A program made the translations under genes and the position numbers. The notes under the pieces were generated by a model. The model was not told the origin of the DNA and made no database searches. It worked only from the letters and a program-made list of their open reading frames with translations. Shown here piece after piece: positions 8,859 to 64,000 of a stretch of DNA of 64,000 bases (position 1 is the first letter of the stretch; the number at the start of each line of letters is the position of its first letter). The DNA comes from a virus. The DNA is taken from IMG/VR virus record IMGVR_UViG_3300049046_000039, positions 1-64,000 of that record; one strand, given 5' to 3'.

Positions 8859-9220
8859 GACACGGTCTCCTTCTGAGACTGCAGCCGCTGGCGCTCGTTG
8901 TAGTTGGCGGTCATCATCTGCGCTTCGAAGATTCGCTTCATCCAGCTGGCGCGAGTCTCGTTGCTGACGTTGGTGCGAAGGCCGACGTACTTCATGACGG
9001 TCTCAGGAGTCATGTTCCTGTTCGCGTCATCGTGAACGTTGAAGCCGCCGAGCATGTTGGCGCGAACGGCGAACTCGACGTAGTTCGCCTCGGTGATCTG
9101 GCCGATGCCGACGGCCATCGTCGTGAAGATGATGTTCTGGCACTCGACGGTCATGTAACCGTCGACGAAGCACACCTCGCTGCGGTTCTTGATCTGCGAA
9201 AGGTCATAATCGAGACTCAT
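8849..9220 (-). CDS. Hypothetical early protein
   Basis: AAGGAG RBS after an early promoter. Confidence 0.7.
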   Translation of the reverse strand: MSLDYDLSQIKNRSEVCFVDGYMTVECQNIIFTTMAVGIGQITEANYVEFAVRANMLGGFNVHDDANRNMTPETVMKYVGLRTNVSNETRASWMKRIFEAQMMTANYNERQRLQSQKETVSCE

Positions 9221-10167: not shown

Positions 10168-10208
10168 ACCATGCATTATATCATTCCCGAGTAAAAATGT
10201 CAATGGAT

Positions 10209-39528: not shown

Positions 39529-39546
39529 ACAAATTTTCCTTGAAAA

Positions 39547-39874
39547 GTGGTGGGATTCTGTTGCTAGGTTCCCACCGGACCCCAGGACTCACTGCTTAGG
39601 CAGCGAGCGCAAGGACATTGTTGTCGTTTGCGGTTATTTTGTGTGGGCCTTAGCGTGGACCCAAACGATCTTCTCAGTCTAGCCTTCAGCGACCATCGAT
39701 CCTAGTTCGGCCCCATCAGAAGCAGTGGTTGGAAGTCTCTTCATACCAACTTTCATTAAGATCGTCTATAGCCAACCTTAAGACCGTCACTGCTTCTGGT
39801 GGAGCCGCCGGGTACTGCCCCCGGGTCTGATCTCCTATCGTTCAACTTCTGGCATATCTCTATGCCGCGAAGAT
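39547..39874 (-). ncRNA. ssrA: Two-piece (circularly permuted) tmRNA, alphaproteobacterial type; ends approximate
   Basis: T-arm and CGGCTCC-A-CCA (39797) precede the 5' GGGGCCG (39714); G3:U70 pair; tag ORF ANDNNVLALAA* at 39596-39631; promoter TTGACA-N17-TATAAATA. Confidence 0.92.
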
Positions 39875-39905
39875 AGAGTATTTATAACATAGCTTGACTA
39901 AAATG

Positions 39906-40217
39906 TCAAGGCCTTTTTTTGCGTCTCTTAATCATAGTCAAGAGCTTGTTCTCAACCTTAGACTTCTTGTTGTTGCAACCTGCGCAGATAAGCTGCCAGT
40001 TGTCTTCTTCGTCTGGTCCACCAAGACACTGAGCCACCATGTGGTCTACACTAGCCTGAAGCGCCCAAGGCTTCTCTTCGGAGTGCTCGATGTGCATCTC
40101 CTGCTCGCATATCCAGCAAGTCTTGTTCTTACGCCATTGGGTCATCTTCCACTGAAACTGTGGATACATCTTTTGCATACGCCTAGCGTGGCCGGCGTTC
40201 TCGTATACGATAGGCAT
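39906..40217 (-). CDS. HNH endonuclease
   Basis: CWIC...SVDH.....GG.....NWQLICAGCN..K. Confidence 0.85.
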   Translation of the reverse strand: MPIVYENAGHARRMQKMYPQFQWKMTQWRKNKTCWICEQEMHIEHSEEKPWALQASVDHMVAQCLGGPDEEDNWQLICAGCNNKKSKVENKLLTMIKRRKKRP

Positions 40218-57336: not shown

Positions 57337-57413
57337 TGGTGCGCGTGACGGGACTCGAACCCGTGACGTCATGATTTTAGAGATCACCGCTCTTCCAACT
57401 GAGCTACACGCAC
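57337..57413 (-). tRNA. Amber suppressor tRNA (anticodon CUA)
   Basis: GTGCGTG-TA-GCTC..GAGC-G-GTGAT-CT[CTA]AA-ATCAT-GACGTC-ACGGG-TTCGAGT-CCCGT-CACGCGC-A-CCA. Confidence 0.9.
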
Positions 57414-57669: not shown

Positions 57670-57761
57670 CGGGTTGCCGTGTTTTCCACCATTGGAAAAC
57701 GCCTGTTTTGGCGGCGTTTATTGGAATCGAACCAATTAGTACGGTTTGCTGTAAGCAACCC
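57670..57761 (-). ncRNA. CAGCAA-stem RNA with a permuted T/acceptor/D tRNA-like module
   Basis: GGGTTGC-TTACAGCAAAC...GCAACCC-G; T arm ATTGG-TTCGATT-CCAAT; AAACGCC-GCCA-AAACA-GGCGTTT. Confidence 0.8.
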
Positions 57762-57770
57762 ATTTTTTTA

Positions 57771-57878
57771 CAGGATCAACTTGGTTTGTTGCCTTTACCG
57801 TTTGGCTATTCGTCGAAGTCGACAAAATGGGAATCGAACCCATAATACACAAATTGTGTGATTTGCTGAACTGATCCT
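57771..57878 (-). ncRNA. CAGCAA-stem RNA with a YrlA-like T/acceptor/D module
   Basis: AGGATCAG-TTCAGCAAAT...TTGATCCT-G; T arm, closed acceptor TTTGTCG-ACTT-CGACGAA, D arm TAGCCAAACGGTAAAGGC. Confidence 0.8.
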
Positions 57879-57887
57879 AAATTAGTA

Positions 57888-57984
57888 CAGGCTTCAGATT
57901 TAGGTGGGAATCGAACCCACACAGATCGATTAGAAGTCGATTGCTCTACCTTTGAGCTACTGAAAGGTTTGCTGTAAGAAGCCT
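57888..57984 (-). ncRNA. CAGCAA-stem RNA containing the D, anticodon (UCU, Arg) and T arms of a tRNA
   Basis: AGGCTTC-TTACAGCAAAC...GAAGCCT-G; promoter TTGACA-N17-TATAAT at 57994-58022. Confidence 0.8.
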
Positions 57985-58035
57985 TATAACCTAATTATAT
58001 AACTTTTGTCTAAGAATGTCAACTAGTTTTTTGCG

Positions 58036-58556: not shown

Positions 58557-58684
58557 CAGGCTAGCTTTTGTGCTTTACGCGCTCTATCCAGCTGAGCTAC
58601 TCTCCCGCATGGTGGGAGAGGTGGGATTCGAACCACACGACCTCGTCCTTCTAATGGAATGCAATGAGTTGCTGAAACTAACCT
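58557..58684 (-). ncRNA. CAGCAA-stem RNA with a circularly permuted tRNA (degenerate anticodon arm)
   Basis: AGGTTAG-TTTCAGCAAC...CTAGCCT-G; T arm, CTCTCCC-A-CCA-TGC-GGGAGAG, TAGCTCAGCTGGATAGAGC. Confidence 0.85.
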
Positions 58685-58692
58685 AAAGTTAA

Positions 58693-58818
58693 CAGATTCG
58701 CTTTTTTATCTAACGTGCTACTATTACACCACACCCCGATAGATGGCCGGGGTGCCAGGAATTGCACCTGGACCTTTCCTTTAACAGAGGAATGATAGAG
58801 AGTTGCTGAAACGAATCT
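58693..58818 (-). ncRNA. CAGCAA-stem RNA with a complete circularly permuted tRNA-Asn(GUU)
   Basis: AGATTCG-TTTCAGCAAC...CGAATCT-G; anticodon arm, T arm, CACCCCG-G-CCA-TCTAT-CGGGGTG, D arm. Confidence 0.85.
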
Positions 58819-59051: not shown

Positions 59052-59088
59052 TGATCAGCCAGGAGGTTTCGTGCCTCCTGGCTGATCA
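59052..59088. terminator. Strong 15-bp hairpin after the DUF2828 gene (no U tract)
   Basis: TGATCAGCCAGGAGG/CCTCCTGGCTGATCA. Confidence 0.5.
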
Positions 59089-59096
59089 GAGATGAC

Positions 59097-60548
59097 TTAC
59101 CTGAAGTCATACTTAGACTGCATGACAGTCTTACGCATGATACCTTCGGGAGTCATGTCGTCGTAGTTAGCGCCGAGAACGGCCTTCATGATCGCTGGCG
59201 AGAAGCCAGAGACGAGGGCAGTTCCAGTCTCGTCGAATGAAACCGGCACGTTACCGTGAGAGTTGAGGTTCCAGAAGACTACTGCCGGAGCTTCGTAACC
59301 AGCACGACGGTACTCGTTACGGATCATCTCGATTGCTCGAGGGTCGTGAGCTTTCGCGCTAGAGCTCCAGCCGCCGCCACCAGTGCCTACGCACTGGTTG
59401 AACTGCATGTCAGACATGATTAGGAGCATCGTTGGCATTTCTGCCGCAGGCACCTTACCCTTGACTGCAGTATCGAGGATGCGATGGAGCGCCTTCTCGA
59501 GGTCGGTAGACATGTTCCAAGACGATCTCGCCATGGCGTTGTATCGCTGAGACAGCGTACCCTTGACGGTCACGAACTCAGGCTCACTGGAGAAGGTAAG
59601 GAACATGTCCTTGAACTTACCAGTGTTCTTGCTCGCGCAATAGAGACCTAGAGAGATCGCTACGTCGAGACAGGTGACATCCACGCCCTTCGTACCACCG
59701 CCGGCGCGGCAGCCCATAGAACCTGAAACGTCTACCAGAGGCAGAACGTTAGCGTCGCCGATAAAGTTAGGTAGAGCGTCCCACTGAGCGTTAGCCACGG
59801 TAGAGTCACCGTATCTCACGGTCTTGATGATGTCGTAAGGGTATACGGCACCAGCGTTGACCTTGACACCCTTGTCGCCACGCTTGAGAGCTTCCTTGTA
59901 TGCAGTGAACTGCGTAGGAGCCTTCTTAGCGAAAGCCTTGGTGTAGCGAGACATAGCCAGAGAAGGAACGTGGTTGAAGTTGATAGCTTCAAACTCACGG
60001 TTACACATCTGAGTCTCGACAACTCTCGTGAGGTTCACGAGCAGCTTGCGGTACTGCTTTGGAGACATTGCCATGAAGTTGCGCAGCTCTACAGCCTTAG
60101 CGCCCTTACGTGGCATCCACTTAGCGGCCAGACCATTACCGTTCTGGAGGTTCTCCTGAATGAGAGAGAACGCTACAGACTTCACTTCCTCGGTGTTGAA
60201 CACGAGAAGGTCGTCGAAGCGGCCCAGATCAGGAACACGCGACAGAAGGTTAGTCTTGGTGAGGTAGTCAGGGTTGACTTTCTCGAGATGGAGAAGGATG
60301 TCGCGGAAGAGCTTACGCTCACCGGCGCCGCCGCGGATGTCGCGAGCCCAGAGGGCGATACGGATAGCCAGTTCGCTGTCTTCTACCAGCGCCTTGTTGA
60401 AGAGGCCGGTAACGTCCTTGCCACGCATAGCGCCGATCTGACCAAAGAGGTCTACGTTGGCGCGCATGGTTGACTTGTATGCAGCCATGCCATTCGTGGT
60501 CTTGGTTTTTACAGGAGTGTTGTTTACTGCATTCGCAAAAGTATTCAT
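59097..60548 (-). CDS. DUF2828-family helical plus vWA protein (Ro60/TROVE-like architecture)
   Basis: T.NG; ARDIRGG.GER; AAKW.PR; VETQMC; VPS.AM.RY..AF; QW..L; MIDAS DVSGS; SDMQF; VFWNL; SGFSP. Confidence 0.88.
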   Translation of the reverse strand: MNTFANAVNNTPVKTKTTNGMAAYKSTMRANVDLFGQIGAMRGKDVTGLFNKALVEDSELAIRIALWARDIRGGAGERKLFRDILLHLEKVNPDYLTKTNLLSRVPDLGRFDDLLVFNTEEVKSVAFSLIQENLQNGNGLAAKWMPRKGAKAVELRNFMAMSPKQYRKLLVNLTRVVETQMCNREFEAINFNHVPSLAMSRYTKAFAKKAPTQFTAYKEALKRGDKGVKVNAGAVYPYDIIKTVRYGDSTVANAQWDALPNFIGDANVLPLVDVSGSMGCRAGGGTKGVDVTCLDVAISLGLYCASKNTGKFKDMFLTFSSEPEFVTVKGTLSQRYNAMARSSWNMSTDLEKALHRILDTAVKGKVPAAEMPTMLLIMSDMQFNQCVGTGGGGWSSSAKAHDPRAIEMIRNEYRRAGYEAPAVVFWNLNSHGNVPVSFDETGTALVSGFSPAIMKAVLGANYDDMTPEGIMRKTVMQSKYDFR

Positions 60549-60567
60549 GTTGTATTCTCCTAATTCA

Positions 60568-60622
60568 CGGGCTCAGTTTGGTTTGCTGTTTTCCGAAAGC
60601 TATGAGTTGCGGAATTGAGCCC
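60568..60622 (-). ncRNA. Minimal C(C/A)GCAA-stem element in the 5' UTR of the DUF2828 gene
   Basis: GGGCTCA-ATTCCGCAAC...TGAGCCC-G, about 20 nt before the ATG. Confidence 0.7.
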
Positions 60623-60630
60623 TAATAAAA

Positions 60631-60816
60631 CGGGATGCGCGGCTTGCTTACTGCCTGCTGAACTAGCCACACGTCGCAGTGACCTCGATCTCTTATTCGG
60701 AGGAGCACCTACACCGTTTATGCTCATGAAACGGTACAATTGGGACGGCGGCCGAAGCCCCGCCGATCGCTAGAAGACCTCGTTAGAGGCCGGTCAGTTT
60801 TTGCTGAAGTCATCCC
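60631..60816 (-). ncRNA. Large CAGCAA-stem RNA with multi-hairpin, non-tRNA cargo
   Basis: GGGATG-ACTTCAGCAAAA...CATCCC-G; internal TAAC- and TTCG-capped hairpins. Confidence 0.7.
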
Positions 60817-60824
60817 ATGACTTG

Positions 60825-60898
60825 TGGAGCGGATAGCGAGACTCGAACTCGCCTCATCTGGTTGGAAGCCAGGTGCTTTACCTCTAAGCTATACCCGC
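60825..60898 (-). tRNA. tRNA-Gly(UCC)
   Basis: Full cloverleaf GCGGGTA...CT-TCC-AA...TATCCGC-T-CCA. Confidence 0.92.
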
Positions 60899-60967
60899 CC
60901 TATTGGATTATGTGCTAATATATATACCCGTTCCAAATAAATGTCAACAGGTTTTTAACATTTTTTC

Positions 60968-61522
60968 TTAATCGTGATCGTAATCACTGACTTCGATGCC
61001 GTTAGCTCGAGTGATCATTACAGTAACGTGATCGCCGAACATAGCGCGCATAATGTCTTCGTTATTAGACACCAGACCGTTAAACCTACGCATGGCTTCT
61101 CTCTCGGACTCAGGAATGGCCATGTCCTTCTTAAGTCGATCGATCGCGTCCTGCCAGTACTGAGAGTCTCGATCCTGATTGAGGTACCCCTCGTATCGCT
61201 TTACTTCAGACTCACTGGCGTCGAAGTTAATATGAACGCCGTAGTAGCGGTCTGCGTAGCTCTCGTCTTCATCTTCACTGAAGAGATCCTCTTCTCGAAC
61301 AAAATAGAGAGTGTTTACGCTAAATACGCACTCCTCACCGTCATTGAAGTAGGGTGTGTACTGCGTCCAAGTAACTGCTGCTACTGTCGGAGCTTCATTG
61401 AAGAATGCTTCAACGACAGACTTAAACTTTTCTTGAACAGAAGCCTGAAATGCTTCGGCCTGAGCCTGAAGCGTGGCCTGATGCGCGCTGATGGCGTCGG
61501 TAATTTGCTTAAGCTCACTCAA
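60968..61522 (-). CDS. Hypothetical protein
   Basis: WTQYTPYFNDGEECVFSV; FGDH..V..T..G..V..YDHD. Confidence 0.75.
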   Translation of the reverse strand: MSELKQITDAISAHQATLQAQAEAFQASVQEKFKSVVEAFFNEAPTVAAVTWTQYTPYFNDGEECVFSVNTLYFVREEDLFSEDEDESYADRYYGVHINFDASESEVKRYEGYLNQDRDSQYWQDAIDRLKKDMAIPESEREAMRRFNGLVSNNEDIMRAMFGDHVTVMITRANGIEVSDYDHD

Positions 61523-61886
61523 CTTTCTTACCCTTTTCCTCAGGCGTCTTATGCGCCATCTTATGCTTCATTGTTCCAGACATCCAACCCTCGATTGGCA
61601 TGGTGCCTAACCACTTCTCGACTGTTGGAATGAAGCCCAAGTCCTCGATGATGTGCTCTTCGGCGATGTCTCGAGTACTGACTTCCTTACCGTCGAGATT
61701 GATGATAGTCTTACCGAACACTTGCTCTACGAGATAGCATCCGAAAGACGAGTGAAGAATAGCTCTATGCCGAATGTCTGGCATAGCGATCTTCGTCTGA
61801 TCGATAAAGTCGTGAATCGGCATGTAGTCAGAAGGAGTTCCACCCCATCGCTTTACGCTAATTCTCGCGTGAAGAAAGGGCTTCAT
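61515..61886 (-). CDS. DUF6915-like protein
   Basis: P..HA..S...WGG...DY..IH.F.D..K....D.RHR..LH..FG....E..FG; R.IAE.H..ED.G.IP. Confidence 0.75.
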   Translation of the reverse strand: MKPFLHARISVKRWGGTPSDYMPIHDFIDQTKIAMPDIRHRAILHSSFGCYLVEQVFGKTIINLDGKEVSTRDIAEEHIIEDLGFIPTVEKWLGTMPIEGWMSGTMKHKMAHKTPEEKGKKVE

Positions 61887-62272
61887 TACCAGTCTCCGCT
61901 AGAGCCGCCACCGCCAAAGTCTCCACCGCCGCCAGAGAAGCTACTCGAAGAGTCTGAGGAACTAGAAGAGTCCGAAGAACTCCATCCGTAGTCGCTCGAA
62001 GAGTCTGAGCTGCCAGATGATCCACCAAAGATCATAGCGCTGGAAGTGGGTGTGTAGTCGTCGTCAGATCTACGCGAGTAGCTCGATCCGTAAGTAGAAG
62101 TCTTTCTCTTCGGCTTTGACTTGTAAGAGTCTAGGCGAAGCCGAGCCGCATTGATGCTGTCGCGAAGCTGCTCTTTGCTCTCGAGAGTCTTAGCGACTTC
62201 AGAAGTAGAGTAGACGCGCTCTGACTTATTGCGCTTAAACAAGCGCTTGAGGAAACACATATTGTTCTCCAA
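61886..62272 (-). CDS. Hypothetical protein with a Ser/Gly-rich tail
   Basis: Ends FSGGGGDFGGGGSSGDW; the likely start is ATG 62260. Confidence 0.7.
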   Translation of the reverse strand: MENNMCFLKRLFKRNKSERVYSTSEVAKTLESKEQLRDSINAARLRLDSYKSKPKRKTSTYGSSYSRRSDDDYTPTSSAMIFGGSSGSSDSSSDYGWSSSDSSSSSDSSSSFSGGGGDFGGGGSSGDW

Positions 62273-62404
62273 AAAAGAAGGTGGGGCATCACTCTCGCGT
62301 TAAGAGAAGGAGAAAACGCAGCAAGGAGGTGATTAGAGTGATGCCCCGTTTAGCCGTGCCTGCCAGCACCGGCTAAACTCGTTATCAAGCCATCTAGTCT
62401 TGAT
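62271..62404 (-). ncRNA. Candidate sRNA/leader with an anti-Shine-Dalgarno loop
   Basis: TTGACA-N17-TATAAT (62411-62439), three hairpins, loop ATCACCTCCTT, terminal T tract. Confidence 0.6.
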
Positions 62405-62537
62405 GGAGTGATTATACTATAGTCACGGGAAAATGTCAACAGGTTTTTAGCGACTATTCAATATTTGCTTTCGTATTTCGTTCACTATATGTTCCGTTTT
62501 GGAGGTTTCCGACCGGTTTTACGGGCACTCAACAATA

Positions 62538-62795
62538 CTAGAAATATTCGCTAGCGCGAAGCAGCGCGTCCTCACAATCTTCCAGTTCAGACTCGGATAT
62601 GCGCTTCCACATAGCGTCGGTGATGGGATGATCGGAAAGAAACGCGATGTCGTCTATCTCGGGTGTTGGATAGTCTACGCCCACGTCTGGCTCGGGTGGA
62701 TGAACTCGACCGTACACTAGTACCGGAAGACCACCTAATATTCTAGCTTCGGCTTCTACAGTGTTGTAGTAGATTCTGCGGTGCTTCTTCTTCAC
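62538..62795 (-). CDS. Hypothetical protein
   Basis: P.EPDVG motif. Confidence 0.6.
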   Translation of the reverse strand: MKKKHRRIYYNTVEAEARILGGLPVLVYGRVHPPEPDVGVDYPTPEIDDIAFLSDHPITDAMWKRISESELEDCEDALLRASEYF

Positions 62796-62796
62796 G

Positions 62797-63066
62797 CTAC
62801 TTACCGAACGTGTTCTTGAACGGACTGGGCATAGTGGACTGCTTCTTGGGAGTAGCGTCCTGCCACTCCTGGTAGTAGTCCTCCAGCTTCTTCCACTCCT
62901 TGTCGAAGTCTTTCTTGCCGTTCGAGCTGAGAGTCTCTTTGTAGGCGGCGATCCACTCTTCGGCCTCGATCCAGAAGCGGATGTTCTTACCGTTGATTCT
63001 GTTCGCCTCGTCCATCTGGACCGCTCGGCGATACCTCTCCCAGAAGAACCTTACTATATCCTGCAC
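62797..63066 (-). CDS. Hypothetical protein
   Basis: GGAGG RBS, GTG start. Confidence 0.6.
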   Translation of the reverse strand: MQDIVRFFWERYRRAVQMDEANRINGKNIRFWIEAEEWIAAYKETLSSNGKKDFDKEWKKLEDYYQEWQDATPKKQSTMPSPFKNTFGK

Positions 63067-63067
63067 G

Positions 63068-63385
63068 CTAACCTCCCGTGTATCCCCAAGTCTTAGTGAT
63101 GTCGTTTACTGTAGACGAGTACTTGATGTCGTCTAGAAGCAGAGTGCAGAACGCAAGAAGAACTAGCGAGTCTCGATCTTCTACTCCGTCTATCTGAAAG
63201 TGCCTCGCTTCGACGCCACACCGCATCATTCGTTCTTGAATTGCTGGAGTCAAGCTGTCCATGCTCGGAGAAGCTGGAGTGTTGTTAAACGTCTCAGTCC
63301 AGCGAGACTTTACGTCTTTAACCCAGCTACGAAATTCAGCCTTCTTGCTTACCGACGATGCTATATCCGGCATACGGACCTCCAA
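63068..63385 (-). CDS. Hypothetical protein
   Basis: GGAGG RBS before MPDIAS. Confidence 0.6.
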   Translation of the reverse strand: MEVRMPDIASSVSKKAEFRSWVKDVKSRWTETFNNTPASPSMDSLTPAIQERMMRCGVEARHFQIDGVEDRDSLVLLAFCTLLLDDIKYSSTVNDITKTWGYTGG

Positions 63386-63580
63386 AATGACATCTTGACG
63401 AACCCTTCTCGCGATAGCACTTATCGCACACCGGGCAACTGCACTCTTCGTACTCTGGCTCTACTCGCTTCTTACTCATCGTCTTCTCCTGGCCAGTAGA
63501 CCGGATGTCCCGGCGGTAAGTGGAAAGCGTTAGAGCAGAACTGGCCGCCCTCGTAAGGCTCGCCGCAGGTAGGGCACACT

Positions 63581-64000
63581 TTACTCTCCATGGTAGAAGT
63601 ACAGTATCTCTGAGAAGCCCTCGCTCTCGTGCGGCGGCTGCATTCTCTTTCTCATGTTCTCTACCACTTCGTGTGAGACCACCTTCTCGGGTCGTCTCGC
63701 TCTGCGATGGAGTAGGACTTCGTACTCGACGTCGTGAAACACTGCCACTACGTCGTATCCAGCTTTCCTAAGCGGAGTAATGAGCGCGGCTCTGGCATCT
63801 CTACTCAAGTTTGTACGATCGATTACTAAATTCTTATCGGTCTCGATAGCTCGATCTATGTCTCTGTTGAAGACTCGGTTAGCGAACTGGATGAGATCGT
63901 GAAACACTTCGTTGTAGCCAAAGTCGTACTTCGAGGATACGAAGTCTATGACGTGATCGCTAGAAGCTGCTATATAACTGCCATCGTGGAAAGCATTGTT
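63581..64000 (-). CDS. Partial polynucleotide-kinase-like (AAA_33) P-loop protein
   Basis: ASSDHVI; VIDRTNL....R; R..R..K.V...V...M; P...EGF. Confidence 0.7.
   Translation of the reverse strand, partial: NNAFHDGSYIAASSDHVIDFVSSKYDFGYNEVFHDLIQFANRVFNRDIDRAIETDKNLVIDRTNLSRDARAALITPLRKAGYDVVAVFHDVEYEVLLHRRARRPEKVVSHEVVENMRKRMQPPHESEGFSEILYFYHGE

Follow-up and report, generated by a model that had tools for sequence, protein, structure and literature searches.

The intergenic element at 62271-62439 on the minus strand is tentatively assigned as a highly structured 5' leader that lies next to the promoter of an early phage operon and carries anti-Shine-Dalgarno (anti-SD) motifs predicted to pair with Shine-Dalgarno (SD) sequences, a reading whose probability we place a little below an even chance. 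The window analyzed here is the whole 64,000-nt stretch, taken from a 115.8-kb virus record. Within it, the element occupies a gap of 265 bp between an 85-aa ORF (p85, stop at 62538) and a 124-aa ORF (p124, ATG at 62260), both on the minus strand, which is also the strand of all genes flanking the element. Read along that strand, the gap comprises TTGACA, a 17-nt spacer, TATAAT, a predicted start at about A62404, three hairpins, ACCUUCUUUUUU, GGAG, 6 nt, and the ATG. The individual features are collected in Table 1.

Table 1. Features of the leader and of the operon that it heads
Feature	Position	Strand	Basis
-35 hexamer TTGACA	62439-62434	minus	promoter scoring
-10 hexamer TATAAT, preceded by a 17-nt spacer	62416-62411	minus	promoter scoring
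Hairpin 1, AUCAAGAC-UAGAU-GGCUUGAU, beginning at the predicted 5' end	62384-62404	minus	fold
Hairpin 2, 9 + 4 bp, UGGC loop, without CU motif	62348-62378	minus	fold
Hairpin 3, 13-bp outer stem, 14-nt bulge, 6-bp inner stem, 13-nt apical loop	62283-62347	minus	fold
5' bulge of hairpin 3, AAUCACCUCCUUGC, 14 nt	62334-62321	minus	fold
Apical loop of hairpin 3, UUCUCCUUCUCUU, 13 nt, second anti-SD motif	62314-62302	minus	fold
Single-stranded U-rich tract, ACCUUC + UUUUUU, the Us 6 nt off the stem	62271-62282	minus	sequence, tail score
Shine-Dalgarno GGAG, 6 nt ahead of the ATG	62270-62267	minus	sequence
First cistron p124, 124 aa	61886-62260	minus	ORF map
Rest of inferred operon: DUF6915, p184, tRNA-Gly, two CAGCAA-handle RNAs, TROVE/DUF2828 RNA-binding protein	59097-61886	minus	annotation

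The consensus promoter of the original prediction was borne out on the minus strand, where the sigma-70 promoter at 62439-62411 scored 12 of 12, having the TTGACA and TATAAT hexamers at a spacing of 17 nt. Seven exact instances of TTGACA-N16-18-TATAAT were found in the 64,000-nt window, as compared to 0.04 expected, and 13 near-perfect copies across the whole 115.8-kb virus record, most of them with TTGACATTTT in common. This family (TTGACATTTT...TATAAT) spans 10175-62439 in the window and extends up to 103996 in the coordinates of the whole record. Judged by these sequence counts, the family clearly appears to be the phage's set of strong promoters for the host polymerase, and the promoter at 62439-62411 is strong and almost certainly real. 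Transcription is predicted to start near A62404, from the usual 7-nt distance after the -10 hexamer.

The distance from the -10 hexamer to the start codon is 150 nt for the promoter of the element, as compared to 4-6 nt for three genes, which are leaderless, and 22-49 nt for the remaining consensus promoters of protein-coding genes. The leader is therefore an outlier in length, and this speaks for a purpose behind the additional RNA. Long RNAs behind other such promoters, in this phage and in its closest relative (L002), are RNA genes co-transcribed with ORFs, for example the tRNA/Y-like arrays at 58022 and 102029. The leaders behind the promoters at 10203 and 11503 are not comparably structured, with z = -0.5 and -2.2, respectively. 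Leaderless early mRNAs are implied at three places in whole-record coordinates, where an ATG lies 4-6 nt past the -10 hexamers ending at 98956, 103968, and 50522.

Folding of the RNA from 62405 to 62255 (151 nt) gave three hairpins with a minimum free energy (MFE) of -57 kcal/mol and z = -4.98, a value equaled by none of 200 shuffled sequences and in keeping with the original prediction of about 130 nt having three hairpins. Hairpin 1, as modeled, is probably a 5'-terminal stabilizer. The outer stem of hairpin 3 is a perfect inverted repeat, GGGGCATCACTCT/AGAGTGATGCCCC, of 13 bp with eight G-C pairs and 39 nt between the arms. The 13-bp stem and the match to the 16S rRNA tail were thus present as first described for the last hairpin, but the single loop was not, since the 39 nt are subdivided into the bulge, the 6-bp inner stem that stacks onto the outer stem, and the apical loop. 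The bulge and apical loop had unpaired probabilities of 0.85-1.00 in the partition function, and the second anti-SD motif that had been claimed was recovered in the apical loop, UUCUCCUUCUCUU, where it is predicted, like the motif in the bulge, to be more than 90% unpaired. A 26-codon minus-strand ORF running across hairpin 3, VLAGTAKRGITLITSLLRFLLLLTRE*, was considered and rejected, as it has no SD and its GTG start falls within hairpin 2.

The stretch ATCACCTCCTT (62333-62323), located in the bulge, is identical to the 3' tail of 16S rRNA at 11 of 11 positions. It occurs once in the 115.8-kb genome, as compared to 0.057 times expected from composition on both strands, and no real ribosome-binding site (RBS) of this phage reaches 11 nt. 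Masking of an SD would need less than this length, a hint of a different role or of coincidence. The possibility that the stretch is a captured fragment of 16S rRNA was rejected, as the identity ends at 11 nt. The CU motifs of hairpin 3 are CACCUCCUU and UUCUCCUUCU, and hairpins 1 and 2 carry none. Stretches of 39 nt containing no fewer than four anti-SD 5-mers were found at two minus-strand places in the 115.8 kb, the second of which is coding, and hairpin 3 is the sole intergenic cluster of these 5-mers on the sense strand. On the plus strand, clusters of these motifs are the RBSs of minus-strand genes, and a plus-strand RBS within the element therefore had to be weighed as well.

Several further ideas about these segments were discarded. 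The UUGCUG of the bulge (62321-62326) is fully complementary to CAGCAA, the handle of the Y-like cassettes found in this region, but the flanks have no further complementarity and the link is probably due to chance. An antiterminator formed with a 5' AUCACUC repeat was rejected because that repeat lies upstream of the predicted start. No second copy of the element, as a MITE or other repeat, was present in the genome, and its reading as a repeat element was rejected on that ground.

Hairpin 3 has the GC-rich stem of an intrinsic terminator, but not a U tract beginning 0-2 nt after the stem. Its position-weighted tail score was 1.94, close to the median of 1.81 for random 15-mers, whereas nine canonical terminators of the same phage scored 4.07-5.22 and had zero gap between stem and U tract. 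The formula for the score follows the d'Aubenton-Carafa/TransTermHP tail score, and the difference is wide enough not to depend on the precise weights. Nor was hairpin 3 listed by the terminator scan of the window. The hairpin followed by a T tract, as originally described, is therefore correct as to the presence of U6 but not as to its adjacency, as ACCTTC intervenes and the tail score is low. Together, the detached U tract and the low score argue for read-through.

Only 22 nt separate hairpin 3 from the ATG of p124, which leaves no room for another promoter. The RNA runs directly into the RBS and ATG of the promoterless p124 gene and is therefore primarily a 5' leader. The stand-alone small RNA (sRNA) of the original prediction survives in its promoter, its structure, and its unpaired anti-SD motifs, but it lacks a proper terminator and continues into p124. 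The additional 130 nt have the look of an RNA module with a purpose, placed as a first "cistron," and any release of it would be through processing, not termination. From its sequence, the U-rich tract just upstream of the SD may be a site for RNase E or S1.

The first cistron of the operon, p124, has a tail rich in Ser, Gly, and Asp (...GGGGDFGGGGSSGDW). It was without a relative in IMG/VR, and a search among 5.8 billion proteins returned only weak partial matches, the best covering 19%. Neither a consensus promoter nor a canonical terminator was found between p124 and the TROVE/DUF2828 gene (59097-60548), so that the promoter at 62439-62411 must feed the genes from p124 through the Ro-like gene.

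The surroundings of this operon are rich in RNA genes. Seven cassettes, each with a closing stem followed by TT/TA-CAGCAA, lie on the minus strand at 57670-57984, 58557-58818, and 60568-60816, and flank the TROVE/DUF2828 "RNA-binding protein." Several of them have tRNA-like T arms, and Rfam reports a tRNA at 57896-57966. By sequence, the TROVE/DUF2828 gene with its CAGCAA cassettes looks like a phage Ro/Y-RNA-like module. A perfect 15-bp hairpin at 59052-59088 (UGAUCAGCCAGGAGG / CCUCCUGGCUGAUCA), with a 7-nt loop and without a U tract, begins 9 nt past the TROVE-like stop and pairs an SD-like AGGAGG with CCUCCU. Elsewhere on the minus strand, a two-piece alpha-type tmRNA is encoded at 39546-39913 (Rfam alpha_tmRNA, 130.8 bits; tag ANDNNVLALAA), and this phage-borne alpha_tmRNA suggests that the host is probably an alphaproteobacterium. 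A minus-strand tRNA with a CUA anticodon at 57337-57413, called "Pyl" by ARAGORN, is likely an amber suppressor.

The UUCUCC of the apical loop is the exact complement of the downstream p124 SD, GGAGAA, over 6 bp with an energy of -8.2 kcal/mol, whereas the contact of that SD with the 16S tail is limited to the 4 bp of GGAG:CUCC. As the loop:SD contact is the longer of the two, it would hold back the translation of p124, the first cistron. The p124 SD is free in the MFE fold, and its contact with the loop would be a predicted pseudoknot across the 13 + 6 bp stem; a 6-bp match of this kind is what any anti-SD motif would yield. A target search within the phage revealed no translation-initiation region that pairs with the element beyond a generic SD, and the best real initiation regions were ordinary GAGAAGGAG sites. 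The best duplex overall, at -29.3 kcal/mol with 54541 on the plus strand, was rejected as a target because it is antisense inside a 385-aa minus-strand gene. The silencing originally proposed was either of host or phage mRNAs in trans or of the adjacent GGAG in cis, and between these the modeled anatomy favors pairing in cis.

The mechanism that we tentatively favor would begin with the host sigma-70 RNA polymerase, which would transcribe a leader of about 144 nt from 62404 to the ATG at 62260 and then p124, DUF6915, p184, tRNA-Gly, the Y-RNA-like cassettes, and the Ro/TROVE-like protein, in that order. Hairpin 1 would cap the 5' end of the leader, and hairpin 3 would present its two pyrimidine-rich anti-SD motifs in single-stranded form. 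These motifs would base-pair with SDs, the nearest partner being that of the leader itself. The UUCUCC of the apical loop would form 6 bp with the GGAGAA located 32-47 nt farther downstream, at about -8 kcal/mol, thereby damping the translation of p124. As hairpin 3 is not a canonical terminator, most transcripts would read through it. If a free RNA of some 130 nt is formed at all, it would come from weak termination or from RNase cleavage in the U-rich linker, and the freed leader could mask other SDs in trans. Transcription, the loop:SD pairing, and the translational effect are what we infer from this arrangement, and the favored reading is limited in that the motifs of the element are represented by a single sequence.

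Relatives of the element were sought by pattern, sequence, and neighborhood. The exact stem-and-loop pattern had no match in IMG/VR, and both stems with any loop had no match in metagenomes. Comparison to GenBank phages by blastn at E <= 10 gave a 20-nt chance match as the sole result. A single-sequence covariance model of the element (R1), searched against its own record and four related virus records, matched itself alone. A pattern of the consensus promoter with ATCACCTCCTT 62-92 nt later gave two matches in IMG/VR, both set aside, as they lie in unrelated AT-rich or other contexts and are probably opposite-strand RBSs. A cmscan of 60000-64000 against Rfam at E <= 10 returned only the tRNA-Gly and two chance matches elsewhere, and an Rfam scan of the whole window at the gathering threshold returned nothing at the element.

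The search anchored on p85 gave no relative in metagenomes. That anchored on DUF6915 gave 22 loci, which had no more in common than DUF6915 and p184, with p483 added in L002, and from which the leader was absent. L002, the closest relative, is truly syntenic over DUF6915, p184, tRNA-Gly, and p483, with 69-74% identity, and retains the DUF6915-p184-tRNA-Gly-TROVE block without p124 and without the leader. At 1040-1201 of L002, a tRNA-like RNA of 99 nt (Rfam tRNA, 38 bits; missed by ARAGORN) comes after a homologous consensus promoter and is itself succeeded by ORFs. This locus and the element agree in architecture, with an RNA next to the promoter and an operon after it, but their RNAs differ.

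Hairpins at the 5' terminus and U-rich tracts ahead of an SD are common features that stabilize or enhance mRNAs. The element might then be a purely structural leader, acting in 5'-end protection, as a processing site, or in weak attenuation, with the anti-SD letters a by-product of a pyrimidine-rich loop. We consider this unlikely, if credible. Its case is helped by the lack of conservation support for the motifs and by the hairpin at 59052-59088 of the same operon, which also has CCUCCU/AGGAGG, although there in paired form. A by-product fits poorly, however, with an 11/11 match to the 16S tail that is expected 0.057 times per genome, with a second CU motif in the same hairpin and the placement of both precisely in unpaired parts, and with the status of hairpin 3 as the sole intergenic anti-SD cluster on the sense strand. 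Alternatively, the RNA could stand alone as a trans-acting sRNA, about 130 nt long, that ends at hairpin 3 and the U tract, its bulge and loop blocking host or phage RBSs, with the downstream genes reached only by read-through. Here ACCUUC displaces the U tract, and the tail score of 1.94 is about that of random sequence as compared to at least 4.07 in nine of nine canonical terminators; in addition, the downstream operon is without a promoter of its own, the best extended phage "target" is antisense in a gene rather than in a translation-initiation region, and no relative of the element was found in the collections searched. We judge the stand-alone sRNA unlikely on this balance, even with its strong promoter, 13-bp GC-rich stem, U6 run, and hairpin at the 5' end, with two exposed CU-rich sites like those of LhrC (PMC4132741) and cuckoo RNAs (PMC4615179), and with an apical loop that matches some phage RBSs over 9 bp, such as those of the genes ending at 9220 and 8858.

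The remaining alternatives make more particular use of the 16S-like letters. It is very unlikely, in our estimate, that the element is a deliberate copy of the 16S tail, produced abundantly from its consensus promoter early in infection, that either soaks up SD-led host mRNAs in general, sparing the leaderless early messages of the phage, or serves as a decoy for a reader of GAUCACCUCC such as Era. Were that so, the element would be a phage device reprogramming translation or ribosome biogenesis by mimicry of the rRNA tail. A decoy for protein, in which the helix with its AAUCACCUCCUU bulge mimics 16S helix 45 and the tail and titrates, for example, the KH domain of Era or a 3'-end processing nuclease, is argued entirely by inference; it has an A in place of the conserved G of GAUCA and no h45-like hairpin sequence, and we hold it to be extremely unlikely even though the match (AUCACCUCC and beyond) includes the AUCA and CCUCC contacts described for Era (PMC10582724) and is longer than SD masking requires. 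The bulge also emerges 3' of the helix strand, as in 16S rRNA, and the phage is rich in mimics of host RNAs, including tmRNA, tRNA-like, and Y-like RNAs. Finally, AAGGAGGTGAT (62323-62333) on the plus strand could be the RBS of a 12-codon ORF, VMPRLAVPASTG* (62338-62376), and an ORF of 11-12 codons does exist there as first noted. The SD is perfect, the distance from GGAGG to GTG is 8 nt, and such clusters elsewhere in the genome are RBSs of the opposite strand. We give this reading next to no weight, however, as the ORF is nothing more than an in-frame reading of hairpin 2, with its start codons buried in the 13-bp stem, the plus strand has no promoter-like site upstream and no terminator after it, and the neighboring genes are all on the minus strand.

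The favored reading of a structured leader with anti-SD motifs invites comparison with leaders that act in cis. Anti-SD elements in 5' UTRs are known from leaders that sequester the SD, such as thermosensors and the expression platforms of riboswitches. As in these, the anti-SD stretch of the element is complementary to the SD of its own gene, but it is found in the loop and bulge of a stable hairpin, so that masking needs a pseudoknot-type contact instead of an alternative hairpin. Unlike in thermosensors and riboswitches, no switch responding to ligand or temperature is evident in the element. In phage lambda, the PR' promoter produces the 6S leader RNA, with tR' as an efficient terminator that is overcome by Q. 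The element resembles this arrangement in its strong phage promoter, short structured leader, and hairpin with Us ahead of an operon, but its terminator tail is weak, and no antiterminator or qut-like site was identified.

Among sRNAs, the cuckoo/CcsR (RSs0680a-d)/alpha-r14 family is defined by two to four hairpins in a row, all of whose loops contain CCUCCUCCC or a slight variation on it (PMC4615179). The element has in common with this family a likely alphaproteobacterial host, chained hairpins, and a single-stranded, anti-SD-like pyrimidine motif, and co-transcription with a neighboring gene is possible in both. It differs in having CU motifs in the third hairpin only, loops 1 and 2 being UAGAU and UGGC, and in being phage-borne and situated 5' of its gene. 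The likeness to AbcR and cuckoo sRNAs that had been drawn originally does not extend to membership, as the CU motif is present in one of three hairpins, CCUCCUCCC is missing, and Rfam gave no match at E <= 10. In LhrC1-5 of Listeria monocytogenes, binding of targets by the terminator loop has been proven (PMC4132741). LhrC and the element are alike in the redundancy of their CU-rich sites and in the placement of one such site in the last hairpin's loop, with SD pairing shown for LhrC and predicted for the element. LhrC, in contrast, is a stand-alone sRNA of Firmicutes with a true terminator and a UCCC motif, and there is no similarity in sequence or in Rfam between the two.

To our knowledge, anti-SD riboregulation has so far been documented mainly for cellular sRNAs, such as cuckoo/CcsR, LhrC, and RNAIII. 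The operon behind the element is itself unusual in combining a Ro/TROVE-like protein with Y-RNA-like and tRNA-like RNAs, and the design of the element is compact. If its exposed copy of the 16S tail is functional, anti-SD riboregulation would be shown to operate at the start of an early operon in lytic phages of Alphaproteobacteria.
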